A stretch of DNA of 64,000 nucleotides from Candidatus Latescibacterota bacterium (lineage in GTDB: Bacteria > Latescibacterota > UBA2968): assembly GCA_965198115.1 (NCBI GenBank), contig OZ240241.1:2080001-2144000 (forward strand), given 5' to 3'. Made by a program: the position numbers and the translations under genes. Positions 17,959 to 31,819 of this stretch are shown here, piece after piece; the first letter of the stretch is position 1; every line of letters begins with the position of its first letter. Below the pieces are notes generated by a model. The model saw only the letters and a program-made list of their open reading frames with translations, did not search any database and was not told the origin of the DNA.

Positions 17959-19290
17959 TCACGCGCTTCGTGCCCAGAAGCTCGTCCGATCGTTCAGCTC
18001 GGTTTCCCATCGCGACATCTCACCACGCAGAGCCTTAACGACGTCGGCCTGATCCCGATCTTCGATCAGATTCGTCATTTCCCAAGGATCGGTTTTCAGA
18101 TCGAACAGCTGAGACGTTCGGTTCCCTTCCACTGCGTACTCGATCAGCTTGTGATCCCCACGCTTCGCACTCCGCTGAAACGCCTTGTAGGCGTATAACA
18201 GTGTCTCCCGCACACACTCGGATCCATCCCCCATCGCATTGACCAGACTCTCGCCTTCGACGGAGTCCGGAATCGGAAGGTCGGCCAGATCGAACAACGT
18301 CGGATAGATATCGTTCAGGTAGCAGTACGCCTCCCGGCGCTCGCCCCTCGGAATCCCCGGCCCCCTGAACACCAGAGGAACCCGCACGCTGTGCTCATAG
18401 ACGTTCTGTTTGCCCATCAGACCGTGTTGCCCCACGGCCAGCCCGTTGTCGCCCGCGAACACGACGATCGTATTCTCTCGATGACGCGTTTCTTCCAGCG
18501 TATCTAACAGCCTACCCACCTGTCGATCCAGGTGGGAAATCATCGCGTAATAGTCGGCGAGGTGCTGGCTCACGACCTCGGGCGTTCGGGGAAACGGCGC
18601 CAGTAGCTCGTCCCGCGTCTCCAGATCTCCGTTGTCGAACGGATGTCGCTCAAAACAGTTGGGCGGAAGCTTCAGCTTCTCCGCATCGTAAAGCGCGTGG
18701 AATTCCGGATGCGTATCACGTGGGTCGTGAGGGGCAGTAAACGAGACATACGCGAAAAATGGGGCTTGCCCATCGTAGCTTTTTAGAAAGTCGATCGCCG
18801 CCTCTGAAAACAGATCGCTCGAATGACGCTTGCTTTCTTGATAGATGCCTGCCTCAGCGTAGGTCCCCGATTCGTCGTAGGGATTGAGGGGCACCTTGAA
18901 GTGATCGCTCATTCCACCGAAGAAAATCCGGTCACCGTGGTCGAAGCATCGCGCGAACGCCGGTCGGCCGTTGTGCCACTTTCCCGTCCCGAAGGTCTGA
19001 TACCCGTGATCGCGTAGGGCTTCGGGCATCATGATGTGATTTTCCGGGATCGACTGTCCTTCCCCCTCGAGATGGAAAAGCGTGCGCCCCCGTCATCAGC
19101 ATGGCCCGACTTGGCATGCATACGGCGCCCGACGTCCCCCCATAATGCTGGCCTCGGTGAACATCGTCCCCTCTTCGACCAATCGGTCCAGGTTGGGTGT
19201 AATGACATCGTCGTTCCCGAGCGCGCGAATCGTGTCGTAGCGCTGATCGTCCGTGAACAGAAACAGAATGTTGGGTTTTGAACGGTCCAT
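17959..19290 (-). CDS. Cys-type sulfatase, with two homopolymer frameshifts near 19090 and 19138
   Basis: [13 protein letters not shown], (GAV)CMPSR, GKWH, APHDP and GDNG spread over three frames. Confidence 0.85.
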
Positions 19291-19577
19291 CAGTCGCTCT
19301 TCTCGATCTCCCAGCCTGTCAGAAAACTTCGGTCCTCTTCCATCGGCTGACACCAGATCCTCTTCGCCCGAAATCGCACTTCGAATTCGACCATTTCCCC
19401 GCCTCCCGTGTAGGCATCCAGATCATCGATGTCGTCACACCACAGCTGCAGACCCGAGGGACTGATGTCCACGATCTGAACATCCCTGAAGCCTCCACCA
19501 TCGACCTGTGCTTCGACCGGAAGAGCCAACCGCAACCGCGCGTTGCGGCGTTGATCGTTACCCGTTGCTTCTGCCAT
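19290..19577 (-). CDS. PilZ domain protein
   Basis: QRRNAR (RxxxR) and DISPSG (DxSxxG) motifs. Confidence 0.75.
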
Positions 19578-21559: not shown

Positions 21560-22561
21560 TCAAGCGATGTTCTTGAAATACTCGATCTTCCCACCCGCAG
21601 CCAGGTCTGCCACCTTGTCGATGAGGCCTTGACGGTCCTGTTGGCTCAACGCCACGAAATCGTGGGCTAGCACGATCTTCTCGCGCATCAGATCCGCGTT
21701 TTCGGCACCCGTAATCAGGACGCTTGCGGGTAGTGACCACACGAAGTGAAGGGCCTGGGCGACGCTGACGCGGCCAGGGATCACCGGGCTCTCGGTTTCC
21801 CACTGCACTCTGTCCAGCTTGATCTTCTTGGGAAAGAATCGTCCGTCTGCGAGCGTCTTCATCGCCAGCAGCGCCACATTGCGCTGTTGCAGGGTCGGCG
21901 TGATCTGTTCGATGAAGCTGTGGTAACTCGGGTCGAGCAGGTTCACGGGCATTTGGCACGTATCGAACAGATCCGTGTCCGCCGACCGCTCGAGCATTCG
22001 TCGGTGAGCCGCAGGGTTGCGGTGGCCCGTGAACCCGACGAAGCGCGCTTTGCCGGAGGCCTTAGCGCGTTCGAACACGTCCAGCACACCGCCCTCGATT
22101 CGCGCGTCTACGTCCTCAGGACTCCCGATCGCGTGGATCTGCCAGAGATCCAAATAGTCCGTCTTCAGCCGCTTGAGGGACTCGTCGAGGTGACGCTCTA
22201 CAGTCTCGGCATCTTTTCCGCCCGTTTTCGTCATAATGAAAACGTGTTCGCGGTATTTCGGTGTCAGGAATCGACCGTAGCGGTTCTCACTTTCCCCATC
22301 GGCATAGCTTTCCGCTGTGTCGAAGAAGCGCACGCCACCCGCCAGGGCTGCCTCGACCACAGCCTGTGCATCCCGCTCCGTCGTCCAACCGATGTGATAG
22401 CCGCCCACGCCGAGCATCGTGACCGACTCGCCGGTTCGACCGAGCTTTCTCTGCGGAAGCAACTCACCCAACCCGTCCCGAGCCCTGCCGCATCCCGCCG
22501 GGATCAGAACACTTGGCAGCGCGGCGAGCAGCGCTTTCAGAAAATGACGACGTTCCATCAT
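21560..22561 (-). CDS. Aldo/keto reductase with Tat/lipoprotein-like signal
   Basis: ERRHFLK...PAGC N-terminus; FFDTAESY, SLKRLKTDYLDLWQIH. Confidence 0.88.
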   Translation of the reverse strand: MMERRHFLKALLAALPSVLIPAGCGRARDGLGELLPQRKLGRTGESVTMLGVGGYHIGWTTERDAQAVVEAALAGGVRFFDTAESYADGESENRYGRFLTPKYREHVFIMTKTGGKDAETVERHLDESLKRLKTDYLDLWQIHAIGSPEDVDARIEGGVLDVFERAKASGKARFVGFTGHRNPAAHRRMLERSADTDLFDTCQMPVNLLDPSYHSFIEQITPTLQQRNVALLAMKTLADGRFFPKKIKLDRVQWETESPVIPGRVSVAQALHFVWSLPASVLITGAENADLMREKIVLAHDFVALSQQDRQGLIDKVADLAAGGKIEYFKNIA

Positions 22562-22646
22562 AACCTCCGATTCAAAAGCAGAACGGGCGACGGGGCGATC
22601 GGGCGAAGAAGCGGATCCTCAAACGTGACACTCTCCAAGGTTTTGC

Positions 22647-22715
22647 TCAGGCATCACGTCCCGCCTCCGCATACTCGATGGGAATCGTGACGATGAATGT
22701 GGAGCCGACACCTAG
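22647..22715 (-). pseudogene. 3' remnant of a histidine kinase gene
   Basis: Translates to LGVGSTFIVTIPIEYAEAGRDA* (HATPase G2-box end) and is cut exactly at the IS1380-like left end. Confidence 0.6.
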
Positions 22716-22735
22716 CCTGAATTATGCATAAAAAA

Positions 22736-24155
22736 GGCTCTATCCGGGTTTCTCAACGGTGAAACTATAGAATGACAAGGTCATAGATCGTTCCCTACGC
22801 TTGGTTGTGTGTGTAGGACAATCAAAGCGAAGGGGGTGCGACCTATGACCGGGAGCAGATTACTATCGAAACTGCTGAGATTCAAGGGGTTCCGTGTTGT
22901 CAGCTGGTGGTTTGAGGGGAGAAGCTGTTTCGTCATCGCCGTAAAGCCACATAAGAATGGTTGTTGTTGTCCGGAGTGCGGCCGTCGAGGTAAAATCGTC
23001 CGCACAATGCCCCATCCGCGTCGGTGGCGTGACATTCCGGTGTGCGGGTGGAGGGTCTGGCTTCTCTACCATCCTCGGGAGATTCGGTGTCCTACCCACG
23101 GTCGTGTGGTCGAGGAGATTCCGTGGGCGGAGCGGTTCTCTCGGGTGACGTATCGCTTCGAGTATGCCATGCTGCGCTACTGCCAGACCATGACGCAGAA
23201 GGCGGCGTCCGAGTTACTGCGCATCTCTGCCTCGACGCTGTCGGATCTCCTTCACCGATCCATCACGCGGCTTCGTGAAGGTCATCGTATCCGAGGGCTC
23301 AAAACCATCGGGATCGACGAGATCTCCTACGCCAAGCGTCACAGGTACGCCACGCTCGTTTACGATCTGGACCGCTCCTGCGTGGTGTGGGTTGGCCGCG
23401 GCAGGGCGCGTAAAACGATCGATCGGTTCTTCACAGAGGCTCTCAGTCCCTACCGGAGATCCAAGATCGAGTGGGCCTGCTGCGACATGAGCGAAGCTTA
23501 CATCGGAGCCATCCAGGAACACTGTCCGAATGCCAAGCTGGTCCTCGATCGCTTTCACATCGTCAAGGCTCTCAATGCCGCCGTTGACGAGGTCCGTAAG
23601 GACCAGTGGCGTAAAGCTGCCCCGGATGAGCGCAAAGCCATGAAGGGCCTCCGATGGCTCCTCTACCGGCACTCAGCGACACGCTCCAGAGGGGATACTC
23701 GGACACTCAAAGCACTGGAGAAGGCGAACTACCGAATCTATAGAGCCTGGAGACTCAAGGACGAGTTCGAGCAGTTCTGGGAATACAAAGCGCCCTGGGC
23801 TGCCGAACGCTTCCTGAAATGCTGGACGACGTCCGCACTCAGAAGTCGACTTGAACCCCTGCGAAAGTTCGTCAGGACCCTGCGACAGCACTTCTTCGGC
23901 GTCCTCGCATTCGTGAACACGCGTCTTACCAACGCCATCGCCGAAGGCCTCAACCGAATCGTCCAAATCGTCAAGAACCGAGCCAGCGGATTCCGCACAC
24001 TCGACGCATTCAACGATATGATCTTCCTTACCGTCGGAGACATAAACATCCCTGAGCAGATTCCGAAGAGGTTCCGCACACGCTAACCGCGCCCCCATGC
24101 CAGGAACCACGGCACCTTCACCCACTTCATCTCGTTGAGAGATCCGGATATAGCC
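22736..24155 (+). mobile_element. ISL3-family insertion sequence, complete
   Basis: 23-bp terminal inverted repeats (22736-58 and 24133-55; 20/23 match). AT-rich 8-bp flanks ATAAAAAA / ATTAAAAA (one mismatch). Confidence 0.92.
22845..24086 (+). CDS. ISL3 family transposase
   Basis: CPECG zinc finger, IGIDE, CDM, DRFHIV, TNAIAEGLN..Q.VK..A.GFR. Confidence 0.95.
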   Translation: MTGSRLLSKLLRFKGFRVVSWWFEGRSCFVIAVKPHKNGCCCPECGRRGKIVRTMPHPRRWRDIPVCGWRVWLLYHPREIRCPTHGRVVEEIPWAERFSRVTYRFEYAMLRYCQTMTQKAASELLRISASTLSDLLHRSITRLREGHRIRGLKTIGIDEISYAKRHRYATLVYDLDRSCVVWVGRGRARKTIDRFFTEALSPYRRSKIEWACCDMSEAYIGAIQEHCPNAKLVLDRFHIVKALNAAVDEVRKDQWRKAAPDERKAMKGLRWLLYRHSATRSRGDTRTLKALEKANYRIYRAWRLKDEFEQFWEYKAPWAAERFLKCWTTSALRSRLEPLRKFVRTLRQHFFGVLAFVNTRLTNAIAEGLNRIVQIVKNRASGFRTLDAFNDMIFLTVGDINIPEQIPKRFRTR

Positions 24156-24242
24156 ATTAAAAAGGTAGTCCCCTTGTACAAGTGTTTGTTTTTCCCTACA
24201 TTTAGGGCTGACACATCAAAACAACACTTGGAAGGAACTACC

Positions 24243-24733
24243 GTGATAGAACCTAGTCAGATCCGGTTACCATTCGCAAGCTTCGGGCAAGGTAGTTGAG
24301 GCTGATTTTGCCGGTGGCGCCGTCAGGAGTGACGGTGGAGTTCTGTTGCTTCGCGCCCTTGAGTCTCAGATGGGATTGATCGCCAGAATGGTAGATGCTT
24401 TGCGAGATCGTCGTCACCCAAGCTATATCGATCACACGCTTTTGGATCTTGTGAAGCAGCGTGTTTTTCAGATCGCTTGCGGCTATGAAGATGCCGTCGA
24501 TTGTGATGATTTGCGCCACGATCCGGGCGTCAAGGCTGCCTGCGATCGGCTTCCTCTTTCCGGTCCTGATCTCGGGAGCCAATCAACGATGACACGACTT
24601 GAGAATGATGTGCGACGCTCGGATTTGTATCGGCTCGCACGGGCTTTTGTAGACGGGTTCATCGCATCGTATGACCAGGCACCCCCAAGCATCATTCTCG
24701 ATATCGACGACACGGATGACCCAACGCACGGTG
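24243..24733 (+). pseudogene. IS1380-family transposase N-terminal fragment (frameshifted, truncated)
   Basis: ADFAGG...SDGG.LLLR, QRVFQIACGYED..D...LRHDP, SQSTMTRLEN, IILDIDDTDDPTHG. Confidence 0.88.
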
Positions 24734-24775
24734 CCGCCCGCGTACTCACACCATGAAGGTCAGAAAGGAATTGTA

Positions 24776-24940
24776 ATGGCGCATCTTCGAAGAATTAATC
24801 GACATAATAACACCAAGAAGAAGAATGGCAACACGCTTTCGTGCGATGACGGGTTCTACTACCCCGCCCCTGCCAAAACCCCCGATCTCAAGTCTGACGA
24901 TCAGGTCCAGGCCAAAGAAGCGAAGAAGAACGTCGCGTAA
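24776..24940 (+). CDS. Putative RiPP precursor peptide (54 aa)
   Basis: MAHLRRINRHNNTKKKNGNTLSCDDGFYYPAPAKTPDLKSDDQVQAKEAKKNVA. AGAAAGGAA RBS, stop 5 nt before the rSAM start, and an H-L-x-x-I-N leader as in SCIFF/CteA and QhpC. Confidence 0.8.
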   Translation: MAHLRRINRHNNTKKKNGNTLSCDDGFYYPAPAKTPDLKSDDQVQAKEAKKNVA

Positions 24941-24945
24941 GGGTA

Positions 24946-26354
24946 ATGCTGAAGAAGTCTGACATCCATCTGTTCGACTACGAAGGCCGCCCAATCGTAC
25001 TTCAGATCCAAACGGGCGATTTCTTCGAAGTCACTCGGCTCGTCGCTGAGATCCTCCGATCGGATGACGGTATCCGTCGCGAGGATCTCGTAGCCGACCT
25101 CTCTCCGAGCCACGGTTTCGAAGCCGTCATCGACGCGCTTTCGGAACTCGAAGCGGCGGACCTGGTCTCGTTCGGCCCAGTCTGCCCGCTCGTCGACTCG
25201 GGGGACGGTGCGGTGGTCCCTCCCACCCGCACGTCCGCCGAGACGATCACGATCACCCTCCACGTTTCGCACGCCTGTAACGTCACCTGCTCGTACTGCT
25301 TTGCACTCGGCGGCGACTATGGCGGGGAACCCAAGCTGATGGCCTGGAAACGGCGAAGCAGACTGTGGATTGGCTGATCGAGGCAACTCGAGATGCGGGT
25401 CGGTGTCAGATCGACTTCTTCGGAGGCGAGCCGCTCCTCCATCTCGGCCTCGTGAAGAAGACCGTGGCTTATGCGCGCCAGCAGGGCGCTGCGAACGGCG
25501 TTGCGGTTTCGTTCGGAATGACGACGAACGGAACCCTCCTATCGGGCGACGCACTCGAGTTCCTGATGGAAGAAGACATTGGAATCATGGTCAGCATCGA
25601 CAGCCCCAAGGAAGTCCACGACGCACAGCGCAGCTTCAATAACGGTGAGTCGACGTACGACATCGTGGCGGCGAACACGACAGAAGCTGCCCGCCGTGCG
25701 CCCGACAAGGTCTTGCTCCGGGCGACGATGACGAATAAAAACCTCGACATGATGGCCCTCGTGGACGAACTCGAGGGTTTCGAGGTCAATTCCGTTGGTG
25801 TCGGACCAGCGTGGCTTTCTCATCATCATCCTACGGCGATTCGGAAAGAGCACCTCCCCGAACTCAGGAAGCACATCCGAACGCTCGCAAACGATGAGCT
25901 GAAGCGTATCAAAGAGGGGCACAAGGCTGAAACATTCGCACCATTGATCAAGAAAGTCTTGTCGGGACAGAAGCGGGAATACGGGTGTGGTGGTGGGAAG
26001 ACCTACTTTGGCGTCGACGTCGATGGCGACATCTATTTCTGCTCGGCCTTCGGCAGCATGCCCGAATACAAAATGGGCGACGTCTGGAAGGGGCTGGACC
26101 CCACGGTGGACGCACGTTTCCGACGCGACTTCCACGTCGACAACAAGAAGACGTGCAGCCAGTGCTGGGCCCGATACCTCTGTGGCGGAGGCTGTGCCTA
26201 CGATGCCAGGGTATCAACCGGCGAACCCACCGAACCCAATCCGGTCGCTTGCGAGCGTACCCGCTACTCGCACGAACTCGCAATGGGAATGGCTCTCGAG
26301 CTGAGCGACCACGCACCGGATGCACTCGACCGCCTCCAGATCGAAAAGGTCTGA
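24946..26354 (+). CDS. RRE-containing radical SAM/SPASM peptide maturase (CteB/QhpD-like), single-base frameshift near 25347
   Basis: N-terminal IHLF...IVLQIQTGDFFEV RRE-like segment, CNVTCSYC, FFGGEPLL, TTNG, SPASM CGGG...DGDIYFC...CSQCWARYLCGGGC...C. Adding one G restores MAWETAKQTVDWL. Confidence 0.9.
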
Positions 26355-26364
26355 CGGAGATAAA

Positions 26365-27786
26365 ATGAGCAATCAAACACACACGACAAAGACCCCCTTG
26401 CCGATGGCGGAAACCCCAGAAAGTGCCCCCTCTGCGGGTCTAAATGCTTCGGCAAGGGGGCCGAAACGTCTCCCCCACGAGGGTTGGATGTTGGCTCCCC
26501 TCTATGTCGCCGAACATCATCTGTTCGAGCACAATGGTCGCACGCTTCTCTTTGGCGTCGGAACGGCCGACTTCTTCGAGATCGATGATGTCGTCGAGGA
26601 TGTGCTGAAGACAATCGAGGGCACCACACTCATCCAGCTGTTCGAGCGTCTTCGATCCTCTCACGGCGAAAAGGATCTCTACAGCGCAGTCCGCGAACTC
26701 CGTGAGGCCGAGATCGTTTCCGAAGAGCGGCTTGCCCGCCCGACGGCACCGGTCCTTCCCGGTCGTCTCGAAGTTTCGGAAATCGTCCTTGAAGTAACCA
26801 CGGATTCTCTGTCAGCACAGAGCGGGAGTCAGTATCTCCGTCCGGCGACCGGTCGAGAGGCCATCAGACTGTTGATGGAGGAGTCGGGGTGTCTCCGCAC
26901 GTGTTCCCTCACGCTCACGGGAGAGCCACTCCTCAATTCCCAGCTCACACTCGATCTGCTCGATCACGCCATCGAACGCGCCGAGCAGATCGGCAAGCGA
27001 TTGCGCCTGGCCGTCGTCACCAATCCAAGATTGGTGAACGAGCGTATTCGTATCTCGCTGAAGCGTCGTGGTGTCGATCTCGTCATCAACGACACAGCGG
27101 GTACGCTCGAAGGCGTGCACGGCTCGGGACCGGCCAGCCTGCAGAGAAGCGCGCTCACGAGTAGTCCACCCACGCATCTTCGCATCGAATCGGTGGATGA
27201 AACGCCGGTGCACCAGATTCGAGAGGCTTTAGACGAAAATCAAAACCTCGCGACGGTCGATCTCCCACCATCGACACCCGGACACCTCTGTCCTGTCTCC
27301 GAAAGAGATCTCGAAGAACTCAGCGCATTCGTCAGCCAGCACGTCATGTCCTCGAAAATGACCTGGATCGGCCCGATCGAGGACTCGGCGGCTCAAGTCT
27401 TCAACGGCCGCCGCGCCAGCTACGGCGACTCAGCTGGCATCACCAGTCTCGCTGTTGGCTGCGATGGAACGATTTACGTGTCCGAAGAAGTCATCGGAGA
27501 TTCCCGCTACCGGATGGGCCACATCCAGAGTGGGCTCGATCAGGGCCGGCGGGCTCAGTGGATTCGAGAAGCCCACGTCGATGCCCGACCCGGCTGCCAG
27601 ACCTGTTGGGCCCGACATCTCTGCGGTGGCGGGTCGACGGTGGCGGTGGGCAATTGCCCAGATCCCGACTCCGACTACTGCACGATCGTGCGTCGGTCCT
27701 ACGAACTGGCAATGGGTTTATGCGTAGACCTCGACGTGCGAAACCCCGATCTCCTCGAACAACGCTACGGACAGGGTGCTGCGTGA
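26365..27786 (+). CDS. Degenerate radical SAM/SPASM paralog with RRE, lacking CxxxCxxC
   Basis: RRE-like HHLFEHNGRTLLFGVGTADFFEID; LEVTTDSLSAQSGSQY replaces the Cys motif; GEPLL and CQTCWARHLCGGGS...C retained. Confidence 0.82.
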   Translation: MSNQTHTTKTPLPMAETPESAPSAGLNASARGPKRLPHEGWMLAPLYVAEHHLFEHNGRTLLFGVGTADFFEIDDVVEDVLKTIEGTTLIQLFERLRSSHGEKDLYSAVRELREAEIVSEERLARPTAPVLPGRLEVSEIVLEVTTDSLSAQSGSQYLRPATGREAIRLLMEESGCLRTCSLTLTGEPLLNSQLTLDLLDHAIERAEQIGKRLRLAVVTNPRLVNERIRISLKRRGVDLVINDTAGTLEGVHGSGPASLQRSALTSSPPTHLRIESVDETPVHQIREALDENQNLATVDLPPSTPGHLCPVSERDLEELSAFVSQHVMSSKMTWIGPIEDSAAQVFNGRRASYGDSAGITSLAVGCDGTIYVSEEVIGDSRYRMGHIQSGLDQGRRAQWIREAHVDARPGCQTCWARHLCGGGSTVAVGNCPDPDSDYCTIVRRSYELAMGLCVDLDVRNPDLLEQRYGQGAA

Positions 27787-28990
27787 ACATCCTCTTCTAC
27801 CAGGACACGTCGGGAGTCAGCGGGGCGGAGATATGGATCGCCGACGCCGCTCGACGTCTGCGCGAGCGAGGGCACGGGATCAGCCTGTCAGCGCCGACCG
27901 AATCCTGGATAGCTGCCCAAGACCGGCATCACGGATTCCCGCTCGTCGATTTCTTCTCCGGCGATGGATTCGACGCCCATCGGCGGTGGATCCTGGCTGA
28001 ACATCTTTCTGCAGCGAGCGTAGACATCGTGGTGTGCAGCATTCCCGGCGCAAGGATGGAGGTGCCACTCCTAGATCAAGCGATTCGGGATGCGGGACGA
28101 GGTAAAATCCTGATTCGTCTGGGTGTCGCCCCTGGCGAAGGCGCCTTTCCACCCGAACGAGTGGGCTACGGCTACGACACCGTTAGTGGGATCATTGCTG
28201 TCTCCCGCGACGTCAAGCATCATCTCGTCCGCAACTTCCCGATGCTCGACAGAGACAGAATCCACGTCGTCTACAATGGCGTCGACCTCGAGCGATTCGG
28301 TCCAGAAACCCACAGCGACGTCGAACGTGCCTCCCAGCGACGCGACCTGGACATTCCCGCCGACCACCGTGTCGTCGCGGCCGTCGGACGGCTCGATCCG
28401 ATCAAGAATCTGCCTTGCCTGATCGACGCAGCCGACATCGTCCTCGAGCGCTTCCCCGCGACCACCTTCGTCATCGCTGGCGACGGTGCAGAACGCGTCA
28501 CGCTCGAAAAATGCGGTCGTCTCCAAAGGGTTGAGTGACGCCTTTTCGCTTTCCCGGTTTCGTCAAAGATGTCCCTGGACTGTTGTCCATCGTCGACATC
28601 GTCGTGCATCCCTCCCTGTCGGAGGGCGTACCCAACACGCTTTTGGAAGCAATGGCTGCCCAGAAGGCCGTGGTGGCATCCGAGGTCGGTGGAATTTCGG
28701 AGGTCGTCGACAATCCTGAAGTCGGCGTGCTCGTTCCCCCCGCCAGTCCATCGGCTCTGGCCGAGACACTCACATCCCTCGTCGGCAGCGAGGATCGACG
28801 CGCAGGACTGGGCTCGAGGGCCCGAGCGCACGTTCTATCTCACTTTGACCGAGCCACCAACATCAGACAGATCGAAGACCTGTTCGACCAGGTTCTACGA
28901 TCGGCAACACCGCTCGCACCGGCGTCCGAACAGCAGCTATACGATCCACCCTACGCGTTTACTGCGCGTGACCATCTGTTGCGTGCATAG
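27783..28990 (+). CDS. GT4 (GT-B) glycosyltransferase, with two +1 homopolymer slips near 28510 and 28545
   Basis: SGAE, VVYNGVD, VGRLDPIKN, IAGDG, PSLSEG.PN.LLEAMA, VGG..EVV; GTG start overlaps the upstream TGA. Confidence 0.88.
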
Positions 28991-29123
28991 TCTGCCGGCG
29001 GCCGTCGGGTGGGCCGCCGGTGGACCATAGATTGGGAACCCCACAAAAGCTTCAGACGTGCAAAGAGTCGGGCAATCTTCTTCTGGGAGGATGCCCGTTT
29101 GTTTTTGACTAAACAGGCCTTCA

Positions 29124-29513
29124 ATGCCGAAGATTCTCCTCATCGACGACGAACCTGACGTGCGACACGTCACGCGGGAGTGCCTGTCAACCAAGGGCTT
29201 CGAGGTCGATATCCCGGCCGTCGAAGACTCGGCCATATCCCGCTCGACCGTTCAAGCGGCCACGACGGACGGATACGATCTGATCATTCTCGATCTCCGA
29301 CTCCCACACCTGGACCCGTTCGATCTGATTCGATCCGTAAACGAATCAGAGGGTCCGCCGATCATGGTTCTGGCCGGTTTTCTGTCGCTGGAGCTCGAGA
29401 GCAGCCTGCGAGCAGCCGGAGTCCATTCGTTCACGACCAAACCGTTTACATTTTCGGATCTCCTGTCCTCGGTCGAAGAGTGCATGGCATCATCGGTGGC
29501 CGTCCGTATTTGA
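29124..29513 (+). CDS. Single-domain response regulator
   Basis: ILLIDDE, DLIILDLRLP, KPF. Confidence 0.88.
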   Translation: MPKILLIDDEPDVRHVTRECLSTKGFEVDIPAVEDSAISRSTVQAATTDGYDLIILDLRLPHLDPFDLIRSVNESEGPPIMVLAGFLSLELESSLRAAGVHSFTTKPFTFSDLLSSVEECMASSVAVRI

Positions 29514-29544
29514 AACCGGGAAAAAGATCACTCACAAAATACAG

Positions 29545-29579
29545 GAGGGGATCGCGAAGCACGCGATCCCCTCTTTCTT
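29545..29579 (+). terminator. Intrinsic terminator
   Basis: 12-bp stem gaggggatcgcg/cgcgatcccctc followed by tttctt. Confidence 0.75.
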
Positions 29580-29614
29580 GTGCAATAGGGCGAAGCCGTC
29601 TCGGCCGCCAACCG

Positions 29615-29695
29615 CCTGCCCTGAGCTGTGCCCTGAGTAAGCGACCGAAGGTCGCTGTACCGAAGAGTAGCCTGCGAAGCAGGCTTATTGAAGGG
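29615..29695. repeat. Nested REP-like elements (CTGAG...GAAG type)
   Basis: cctgccctgagc...ttgaaggg encloses gccctgagtaagcgaccgaaggtcgct and the hairpin agcctgcgaagcaggct. Confidence 0.45.
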
Positions 29696-31819
29696 TCAAC
29701 TATCGACCTTCTCTGAGACGAGCATCAGCGGATGCCATACCGGAATCCCGGTCCCTTCGCCAAGGTGGATGCTGCAGACACTCGATTCGGTCACGATCGC
29801 TTCCACTCCTGCCTCGCTAAACCCATCGAACAACGGCTCACCCACCGCGTTTGCCAATTCGTAGCCGAGCTGCCCCGTCTTCAGGCCGAACGTGCCCGCC
29901 ATTCCGCAGCAGGTGCCCGTTTCGATCACCTCGACCTGGGCACCCCGACGTTTTAGAAACTCGATCGCACCTGCGCCGGAACCCAGTGGGCGCTGATGAC
30001 ACGGAATGTGGAAACCGAATCGACGGCCCGCCAGAGAAGTCGTGTCAATCGTTTCCTCGAGCGTGTCGACATACTCGAAAAACTCCGACGTGTTCTTCGC
30101 CACAATCAACGCGTCTTCGTCCTCATCCAGAAGTTTTGGGTAGGACTTGCACAGACAGTAGGCGGCCGTCGGCTCGGTCGTCACGATGTCATAGCCCTTC
30201 TCTACCCACGGCGTCAAAAGGGACACATTCTCCCGCGCGATCTTCCGCGCACCCGTCAGGTCACCGTAGCCGATCGCCGGATAGCCGCTCGTCACCTGCT
30301 CCGGGAATTCCACCGCACAACCCAACCGCTCGAGGTGCTCGACAGCGGCCATCCCCAAAGCGGGTTCGTTGTAATTGGCAAAGATATCGGCAAAGAAGGC
30401 GACCTTCCGTCTGGGGGCCTTTACAGGAGACGGCCCACGCCGTCGTAAGCGCTTCTGCAACGTGTTCCGATTGAACACCGGAAGATTTCGTCTCCGATCG
30501 ATTCCCACTACCTTTTCGAGCACGTAGCGGAAGACGCGGTTCCGCATCATCCAGTTTGAAAGCGGTGCGGTCATCGAGCCCACCCTCGCGCCCCGCTCCG
30601 CATCCATCAGGAACCGATTCACGCGCGGATGCGGATGGGCTTCGGAGTCCCGTTCCTTGACGCCGGCGATCATCATCGGAATGTCGATCTCGGCCGGACA
30701 GATCTCCTTGCATAGCCCGCACGAGATGCAGAGCGGGGCGAAATCGCCCGCGAGTTCGAGACCGTGCACCTCCGACGTCCACGGAATCCCGATCGGTCCC
30801 GGATAGATGTGGCCGAAGGTATGTCCGCCGACGACACCGTAGGTGGGACACACGTTCATGCACGCGCCACACCGGATGCAGTTGAGAGCGTCGCTGAACA
30901 GCGGATCCTGAGCCATCTCCGTCCGCCCGTTGTCCAGAATGATGATGTGCGTTTCCCGTGGCTCCCGCCCTTCCCCGTCGCCCAGCGGTGACCGGCCGGC
31001 CTGAAACGTCACATACGTCGTCGTATGCTGGCCCACCGCGCTGATAGGATGGGCAAGCAGCATCATCACGGCGTCCCCGCACGACTCGACGATCTTCTCT
31101 CGCCCCATCACGCAAATGTGCACATCCGGAATGCTCGAGACTAGACGCGCGTTACCCTCGTTCGTCTCGATGACGATCGCCCCTGTGTCGGCGATGCCCA
31201 CGTTCGCCCCCGTCATCCCGATGTCGGCGTCCAGGAAGATCGGTCTCAAATATCTTCGGACGACCTTCATGATCTCGTTCACGTCGTTCGGCACATCCTC
31301 ACCCGTTTCGCGCCGGAAGATCTCAGCTACCTGAACAGCCGTCTTGTGGACCGCGGGGAACACAAGATGGAAGGGCTTCTCATGAACCTTCTGAATGATC
31401 AGCTCACCCAGATCGGTCTCGATCACGTCCATTCCTGCATCTTCCATCGGATGGTTGATCTCGATCTCTTCCGTCGTCAATGATTTCGATTTGGCGCAGG
31501 ACTTCGCACCCTTGTCGGCGGCCAGCTTGAGCACGTAGGCGATGGCCTCCGCTCCGTCCTTCGCCAGGAGGACGTGTGCTCCCCTCCTTTTGAGGTTCAA
31601 AACGAACCGATCGACCAACTCCTCTTGTTCCGACTGACAACGAAGCTTGATCTCGCGAACTTCCTTCCTAAAGCCCTCGCCCCCCGGCAGCTCGTCGAGC
31701 GCCGATCTCCGGCTGTCACGGGCACGTTTTACTGCCCGGTAGAGCTGGTCCCGCTGGGGTCTCTCTTCGATCGCTCGCGCGATCTTCGCGTTCAGCCTCT
31801 CGTATCGGATCTCAGCCAT
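29696..31819 (-). CDS. LUD-domain Fe-S protein (LutB/LldF-like) fused to a CCG-domain module
   Basis: KSKS..TEEI, ETDLGE, TNEGN, CIRCGACMNVCP, CISCGLCKEICP, HIPCH, CCGMAG. Confidence 0.88.
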   Translation of the reverse strand: MAEIRYERLNAKIARAIEERPQRDQLYRAVKRARDSRRSALDELPGGEGFRKEVREIKLRCQSEQEELVDRFVLNLKRRGAHVLLAKDGAEAIAYVLKLAADKGAKSCAKSKSLTTEEIEINHPMEDAGMDVIETDLGELIIQKVHEKPFHLVFPAVHKTAVQVAEIFRRETGEDVPNDVNEIMKVVRRYLRPIFLDADIGMTGANVGIADTGAIVIETNEGNARLVSSIPDVHICVMGREKIVESCGDAVMMLLAHPISAVGQHTTTYVTFQAGRSPLGDGEGREPRETHIIILDNGRTEMAQDPLFSDALNCIRCGACMNVCPTYGVVGGHTFGHIYPGPIGIPWTSEVHGLELAGDFAPLCISCGLCKEICPAEIDIPMMIAGVKERDSEAHPHPRVNRFLMDAERGARVGSMTAPLSNWMMRNRVFRYVLEKVVGIDRRRNLPVFNRNTLQKRLRRRGPSPVKAPRRKVAFFADIFANYNEPALGMAAVEHLERLGCAVEFPEQVTSGYPAIGYGDLTGARKIARENVSLLTPWVEKGYDIVTTEPTAAYCLCKSYPKLLDEDEDALIVAKNTSEFFEYVDTLEETIDTTSLAGRRFGFHIPCHQRPLGSGAGAIEFLKRRGAQVEVIETGTCCGMAGTFGLKTGQLGYELANAVGEPLFDGFSEAGVEAIVTESSVCSIHLGEGTGIPVWHPLMLVSEKVDS

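Follow-up and report, generated by a model that had tools for sequence, protein, structure and literature searches.

A conserved, unnamed RiPP operon family of Candidatus Latescibacterota, met in a probably decaying copy, may join thioether formation to glycosylation

Genes of the locus

Here we analyse a window of 64,000 nucleotides (nt) from a Candidatus Latescibacterota genome (contig OZ240241.1, positions 2,080,001 to 2,144,000), in which positions 24776 to 28990 carry four genes that a first-pass annotation had proposed as a new system for a peptide ribosomally synthesised and then modified post-translationally (RiPP). These genes encode a precursor peptide, an enzyme that joins a RiPP recognition element (RRE) to radical S-adenosylmethionine (rSAM) and SPASM domains, a paralogue of that enzyme without the SAM-binding Cys motif (pseudo-rSAM), and a family 4 glycosyltransferase (GT4). 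They are members of a conserved RiPP family of the phylum that has as yet no name and, judged from sequence, the operon likely makes an undescribed sulfur-bridged peptide that probably bears a sugar as well. The features, in window coordinates, are:

24776-24940, + strand: precursor peptide open reading frame (ORF), 54 amino acids (aa), with an H-L-x-x-I-N leader, a single Cys23, a variable core and a basic/acidic tail
24946-26354, + strand: RRE-rSAM-SPASM maturase of CteB type, with an N-terminal RRE-like domain and SPASM
26365-27786, + strand: pseudo-rSAM, 473 aa, ORF intact, RRE retained, CxxxCxxC gone
27783-28990, + strand: GT4 glycosyltransferase without an RRE, from a separate clade linked to the pseudo-rSAM
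28995-29020, + strand: GC-rich hairpin after the GT4 stop, with a perfect 9-bp stem (28995-29003/29012-29020)

Everything that the annotation had described of this arrangement is present in the sequence: the four genes are co-directional, with gaps of 5 nt (precursor to rSAM) and 10 nt (rSAM to paralogue), a GTGA overlap of paralogue and GT4 at 27783-27786, and the hairpin behind them. The one-Cys precursor has its own ribosome-binding site (RBS), AGGA, 6 nt 5' of the ATG; the maturase carries its SAM-cluster motif as CNVTCSYC (25276-25299) together with seven SPASM Cys, and the paralogue has lost the motif. The hairpin lacks a U-tract and was not predicted to be a terminator, and an Rfam scan of 22000-30500 gave no match at gathering score. 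The window's genome (G000) holds one copy of the operon. The identical four-gene order is present in other genomes and in metagenome contigs, and since the layout recurs elsewhere it is not due to chance.

A conserved family with hypervariable precursors

Our survey comprised 42 distinct loci with an active enzyme and a search of 168 genomes of the phylum. The core unit of the family consists of a large sigma-54 activator, a precursor with one core Cys and a CteB-like RRE-rSAM-SPASM enzyme. The four-gene unit proposed earlier thus stands in relatives, with a fifth gene that had been missed: the activator gene lies in front at 39 of 39 loci with upstream sequence, and the full order activator-precursor-rSAM-paralogue-GT4 is found in L136, a metagenome locus that the tree places in the window's lineage. 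The activator is typically about 1,600 aa long, with kinase, AAA, TPR, GAF, sigma-54 and helix-turn-helix domains, and a -24/-12 site precedes 16 of 40 precursors under a strict pattern (0.6% in shuffled sequences) or 20 of 40 under a relaxed one (1.7%).

The nearest relatives are metagenome-assembled genomes of Ca. Latescibacterota, followed by Clostridia-type enzymes at 27-36% identity; 25 of the 79 loci in a genome scan are close (41-84% identity) and the rest are Clostridia-type, and two of 80 loci in a metagenome scan (L136, L137) belong to this system. A paralogue profile matched 27 of the 168 genomes, 25 of them within three families of one class; the matches in G084 and G090 fell outside the clade in the tree and were set aside.

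Conservation of a short ORF and of synteny around homologous rSAMs had been named beforehand as the test of the proposal, and both are upheld. In an unfiltered listing, 17 of 18 rSAMs are preceded by a short ORF of this kind; a combined leader and RBS filter finds a precursor before 39 of the 42 loci and inspection by eye adds a fortieth, the two others sitting at contig edges. The window's leader, H-L-x-x-I, fits the HIxxI type listed among leader recognition sequences (PMC12710340), in keeping with the M-x-H-[IL]-x-x-[ILV]-N leaders that the annotation gave for RRE-fused SPASM enzymes. None of 25 precursors matched NCBIfam, or Pfam above noise, and a sequence search of the PDB with the precursor returned a single chance match.

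A profile built from these 25 precursors reached 177 database clusters, of which 120 precursors, all of the type of genus g4, were listed and used for core statistics. The core Cys is present in all 120, and between the conserved leader and a Pro-rich follower there are 88 distinct cores. Val stands at C+7 in 115 and C-x-P occurs in 75, while CX3[DE] is found in 16 (and in 5 of 40 locus precursors). Precursors have one to three Cys; C+3 is mostly Gly, C+7 is nearly always hydrophobic, an aromatic residue lies at C+2 to C+5 in 32 of 40 cores, and the cores share no conserved Asp or Glu acceptor. The frameshifted precursor of L023 was excluded from the core counts. Many genomes carry two or three loci, and the precursors differ within a genome. 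Arg at C+4 was considered as a marker of loci with the second type of glycosyltransferase and dropped, as L033 has the Arg and no such glycosyltransferase.

We found no description of this family in a literature search whose coverage left out most subscription journals; none of five taxon names is present in the spreadsheet of PMC10288494, and the available part of a paper on sponge Latescibacterota has the antiSMASH label 'ranthipeptide' only (PMC12993501).

A CteB-like maturase below all cut-offs

Scored on an intact orthologue, the curated models that come closest all stay below their cut-offs: SCIFF (TIGR03974) at 278 against 425, QhpD (TIGR03906) at 270 against 453, PapB (NF047865) at 267 against 340 and nif11 at 239 against 519. 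The anaerobic sulfatase maturase model scores 91 and the mycofactocin maturase 69 (cut-off 265). The nearest solved structure is CteB, at 290 bits with all seven SPASM Cys aligned, and the next family follows at 85. The seven Cys, three for the first auxiliary cluster and four for the second, are complete in 42 of 46 sequences, fragments counted. In CteB, PapB and Tte1186, three of these Cys ligate a cluster whose open site is likely where the substrate Cys sits (PMC10177961). Six catalytic-site positions have been defined, which in CteB read F, F, T, S, H, Q (PMC10288494); positions 1-4 here are likewise F, F, T, S, whereas 45 of 46 sequences carry S-S or S-A at positions 5-6 (the 46th being the window's N-terminal fragment), giving a loop C-S-[S/A] in place of the C-H-Q of CteB. 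By its sequence features the enzyme appears to act like a CteB/PapB-type maturase, yet it lies below the cut-off of every named family tested. With precursors that belong to no family either, this bears out the annotation's view that the RiPP system is of no recognised class.

A long-kept pseudo-rSAM and its glycosyltransferase

Compared with the CteB cluster ligands given in PMC10177961, the window's paralogue has lost the first auxiliary cluster's three Cys, along with CxxxCxxC, and retains four for the second; in other members the seven SPASM Cys are complete, and the second-cluster Cys are retained in motif-less members with full C-termini. The best ten paralogue matches among 1.8 billion representatives all lack CxxxCxxC. 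A quick tree groups the pseudo-rSAMs in a single clade, with the active Latescibacterota enzymes as its sister (approximate likelihood ratio support, SH-aLRT, 100 and 99). The ratio of nonsynonymous to synonymous substitution (dN/dS) in three orthologue pairs is 0.10, 0.17 and 0.38, the active enzyme giving 0.10, 0.11 and 0.23. Mean identity in the RRE, 0.36 for the paralogue, is level with the 0.37 of the active enzyme, while the barrel has drifted (0.36/0.22 as against 0.55/0.44). The model of the G009 paralogue (mean predicted local confidence, pLDDT, 87) has CteB as its top fold over the full length, with template-modelling (TM) scores of 0.75-0.76. These comparisons point to a maintained protein under purifying selection, from an old sister clade, and not to a pseudogene.

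Two further proteins deserve mention beside the paralogue. A paralogue-clade rSAM at L032 8897-10378 (+) in G034 keeps CxxxCxxC and the first-cluster Cys and has lost those of the second; it is possibly an active second enzyme, and a different GT4 follows it. A longer rSAM-like protein of 656 aa (P0022), without CxxxCxxC and outside the paralogue clade, is perhaps an independent pseudo-rSAM.

The GT4 falls in a clade of 44 clusters at 203 bits or more, with generic GT4s dropping to 178 or less; four matches at 270-285 bits (the second of G054, and G068-G070) were classed as generic GT4s by score alone. Clear members occur in six of the 168 genomes, each directly after the paralogue (which in G003 is cut by the contig start), and G001 has a relic. 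Viewed from the paralogue, the GT4 adjoins it in six of seven genomes, and in the seventh, G006, the contig ends after the paralogue. None of the 21 genomes of genus g4 has the clade, and the loci surveyed from them also lack the paralogue. Because the GT4 genomes are kin, this co-occurrence is to be read as a pattern and not as a statistic. The best named models for the GT4 are cell-surface glycosyltransferases, all below cut-off.

An RRE profile made from the rSAMs gave no match on the GT4. The same profile matches the N-terminus of a family 9 glycosyltransferase (GT9) encoded between two rSAM genes in two genomes (L023, L024) and one metagenome locus (L137); profile comparison supports this RRE (95.5%, E 1.5e-8), and six full-length RRE-GT9 clusters are known from the database.

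The genes behind the GT4 differ among loci. In the RRE-GT9 loci the next genes encode a response regulator as well as a GAF histidine kinase (L023 6960-7328 and 5575-6963 (-); the same pair in L024 8893-10749 (+) and L137 5816-7615 (+)). The window's receiver gene at 29124-29513 looks unrelated to that regulator: it is not among the top matches of the L023 response regulator and was not counted as a member of the unit. In G009 and G003, fliO, fliP, fliR and flhB lie after the GT4 (L021 5347-11153 (+), L026 2364-5880 (+)), with flhA in L021 too. In G043, a CAAX-type protease, a ThiF-family protein, a nitroreductase and an ABC-2 permease (L025 11975-17207 (+)) are possibly a second peptide-modification cluster.

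Proposed pathway and alternatives

On balance, we lean towards reading the window's genes as a broken copy of a conserved peptide-modification operon, one that would close a single thioether ring and then glycosylate the peptide with the paralogue's aid. Transcription would depend on sigma-54 through the kinase-AAA-TPR-GAF activator. Both RREs would bind the H/L-x-x-[IV]-N leader; the core Cys thiol would bind the three-Cys auxiliary cluster of the rSAM, which would form one C-S bond (-2 Da) with a carbon of the variable residues that follow the Cys, C+3 and C+7 being the candidate partners. The motif-less paralogue would then hold the leader as an adaptor for the RRE-less GT4, which would transfer a sugar to the peptide, and processing and export would come from genes outside the operon. 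An invariant core Cys combined with a CteB-like enzyme points to a thioether; for a dead enzyme with an RRE, present or absent together with a GT4 that has none, an adaptor role would be the simplest reading; and the best sign that sugars likely go onto the peptide is the RRE-GT9 fusion in the same kind of operon.

Several points weigh against this reading. The thioether and glycosylation chemistry is deduced from sequence, and with S-[S/A] in place of H-Q at positions 5-6 it could be another reaction. The cores of GT4-bearing loci have no conserved sugar-acceptor residue in common, and two loci, L061/L032 and L122, carry a GT4 of another kind and lack a motif-less paralogue. The co-occurrence of paralogue and GT4 comes from seven related genomes and could reflect shared ancestry with loss as a block. 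The window's paralogue and those closest to it have lost first-cluster Cys that others retain, so one role may not fit all. The per-domain identities of paralogue and active enzyme were computed on different row sets (11 and 7). Finally, the 42 loci share no conserved neighbouring gene for a protease or exporter.

The paralogue is where the closest competing account departs: the thioether is formed as above, and the paralogue partners the active rSAM (as heterodimer, as a second grip on the leader, or by relaying electrons via the cluster left to it) or is a former second modifying enzyme, with the GT4 recognising the cross-linked peptide alone. In its favour, motif-less members with full C-termini keep the second-cluster Cys, basal members of the clade retain CxxxCxxC (L032, P0011, P0013), and the same hypothesis has been raised for pseudo-rSAMs of Bacteroidales (PMC10352776). 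We nevertheless judge this account unlikely: the enzyme can do without a paralogue, since 36 of the 42 rSAM loci lack one, and paralogue and GT4 are present or absent together. Less probable again is another rSAM chemistry, be it Cys oxidation or cleavage, a C-C cross-link to the aromatic residue that follows the Cys in most cores, or a small cofactor decorated by the GT4. The divergent positions 5-6 would allow it, and the common C-x-P of the cores is reminiscent of the sulfatase Cys motif; the best models and structure are those of thioether maturases, however (267-278 bits, against 91 and 69), and a hypervariable core with two or three precursors per genome is unsuited to a fixed cofactor. 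The annotation had offered two products, a cross-linked, glycosylated peptide and a peptide-derived cofactor. Of these, glycosylation of the peptide gains support from the RRE-GT9 fusions and the paralogue-GT4 co-occurrence, as far as sequence goes, whereas a mycofactocin-like cofactor fits poorly, given 88 distinct cores among the 120 listed and a MftC model score of 69 against 265.

It is also conceivable that the GT4 is co-regulated cargo of a sigma-54 cassette, acting on a surface glycan, a lipid or flagellin, with the peptide cross-linked and unglycosylated. The genes after the rSAM do vary widely over the 42 loci, the named models nearest to the GT4 are those of cell-surface enzymes, and flagellar export genes follow closely in G009 and G003. 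We give this account little credence, since across the 168 genomes searched the GT4 clade occurs, one relic aside, in these operons only, paralogue stop and GT4 start overlap in the window, and an RRE is fused to the GT9 of sister loci.

A bolder extension of the thioether-then-sugar pathway would have a dead rSAM kept over long times as a leader adaptor that recruits a glycosyltransferase, a class of thioether glycopeptides, and hypervariable rings that serve as signals read by the cognate kinase-TPR sigma-54 activator; we regard it as speculative and rather doubtful. The family is a large unnamed one in an uncultured phylum that includes sponge symbionts. Its CteB-fold enzyme, with a changed substrate loop and many accepted cores, may show a new thioether regiochemistry and be a broad macrocyclase, and the four-gene variant provides a direct test case for the role of pseudo-rSAMs, a matter that concerns the Bacteroidales family too, and bears on whether rSAM thioether formation and glycosylation combine on one peptide.

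Relation to known systems

With CteB (PDB 5WGG/5WHY), PapB and QhpD the present enzyme shares the RRE-rSAM-seven-Cys SPASM layout, an HIxxI-type leader and active-site positions 1-4; it differs in lying below all cut-offs, in acting on one core Cys, and in the sigma-54 activator, pseudo-rSAM and GT4 of its operon. SCIFF precursors have six Cys, those here one to three and no NCBIfam match, and motifs of the PapB type, CX3D, have a counterpart in the CX3[DE] of only 16 of the 120 listed precursors. QhpC (PF08992) had no match in G000, in a search in which no control genome matched either, and the precursors are likewise without a PF08992 match.

The nearest analogue in layout is a Bacteroidales cluster with precursor, rSAM, pseudo-rSAM and glycosyltransferase, its function given there as untested (PMC10352776). 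Since this layout is already published, ours is not a new category: the claim of a new system stands in that no named family covers it, and needs qualifying in this respect. The components themselves differ. The Bacteroidales GG-leader system is described by models for rSAM (TIGR04148), pseudo-rSAM (TIGR04150/IPR026418) and GT4 (TIGR04157), below which the components here remain (91 against 300; 68 against 400), with no match of TIGR04150 on the paralogue, and the paralogue groups with its own neighbour rSAM. The GG-leader model did not match any of the 25 precursors, and there is no conserved peptidase-transporter among the four genes after the 42 rSAMs.

One-Cys substrates also have a precedent in KgrA, and ranthisynthase-like enzymes make alpha-thioethers (PMC10288494); enteropeptin (KgrA/KgrC), streptosactin (GggB) and QmpB nonetheless come from another phylum and differ in leader and accessory genes, the GggB model scoring 77 on the rSAM here against a cut-off of 650. 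Glycosylation of RiPPs is known from cacaoidin, a lanthipeptide unlike the rSAM system here, whose cluster has GT2 and GT4 genes and whose Tyr is O-glycosylated (bioRxiv 2020.05.20.105809). RRE-glycosyltransferase fusions have been noted by genome mining (PMC7470986, PMC12710340); the available parts of the genome-mining and glycosylated-RiPP papers describe no RRE-GT9 fusion and no pseudo-rSAM adaptor.

Mycofactocin combines an rSAM-SPASM enzyme with a glycosyltransferase, the GT2-like MftF, on a peptide-derived product. The present system departs from it in the low score of the MftC model (69 against 265), in precursors without a C-terminal Val-Tyr, in a GT4 and in a hypervariable core. In glycocins, a GT2 acts on Cys or Ser and no rSAM is involved.

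State of the window's copy

In the assembled sequence, one base shifts the rSAM frame near 25345, and two more such shifts, near 28505 and 28545, break up the GT4 gene; the first-pass annotation had allowed for a frame correction in the rSAM and did not mention the shifts in the GT4. All three shifts lie in short single-base runs. A 10,344-nt contig of runs X1/X2, possibly the source sample, is identical to 24705-29600, and a single 151-nt piece of a second sample is in agreement there at the first shift, one of its flanks being just a few letters long. Seven of 44 orthologues are flagged as broken, one of these a tandem-gene artefact, and ISL3 copies in the genome differ by 0.24 gaps per kb; 0.5-1 shifts would be expected in 4.2 kb, so the three observed are a modest excess (P ~0.01-0.08).

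Upstream of the operon, and outside the system, lies a stack of insertion sequences (IS):

22716-24734, + strand: IS stack with Pfam DDE_Tnp_ISL3 and DDE_Tnp_1_4, left boundary approximate

The stack consists of an IS1380-family left end, an inserted ISL3 copy (22736-24155) and the IS1380 remainder, broken off at 24734, 41 nt upstream of the precursor; 32 of 37 copies of this IS1380-family end in the genome run on into the same transposase sequence, and the window copy does not. It occupies the place that the activator gene and sigma-54 promoter hold in relatives. No sigma-54 site was found before the window's precursor, and a sigma-54-like motif upstream of the stack proved to be the IS1380 left end. 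The kinase-AAA-TPR part of the activator, used as query, gave no match in G000 or in G001, of the same genus, and was found in G009 and G006. At this site G001 has only the GT4 relic, its 5' end replaced, and its other operon genes were not found. We consider that the window's copy is probably decaying, with sequence error the lesser but still sizeable possibility.

IS expansion in G000 is extensive: there are 260 ISL3 matches (223 full-length, 174 with an intact transposase ORF) and at least 37 IS1380-family copies, in a genome of 8.4 Mb compared with 5.6 Mb in G001. Elsewhere in the window, a gene at 17959-19353 (-), putatively sulfatase-like by its sequence, is likewise split over two frames, and its G001 orthologue aligns with stops.

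Other layouts among sister loci

Two other arrangements recur. In genus g4 (L028, L030, L045, L049, L057, L059, L065, L132) a GT2 gene precedes the activator and an unnamed gene of about 300 aa follows the rSAM; its product is methyltransferase-like by eye, with no Pfam or NCBIfam match, and most cores of these loci have Trp at C+3 or C+4. In a third layout (L048, L050, L052, L055, L056, L058, L060, L063, L129, L133, L135), the rSAM is followed by a protein of about 335 aa that resembles part of the activator, probably the kinase, and by one of about 1,090 aa, and a membrane-protein gene lies upstream.

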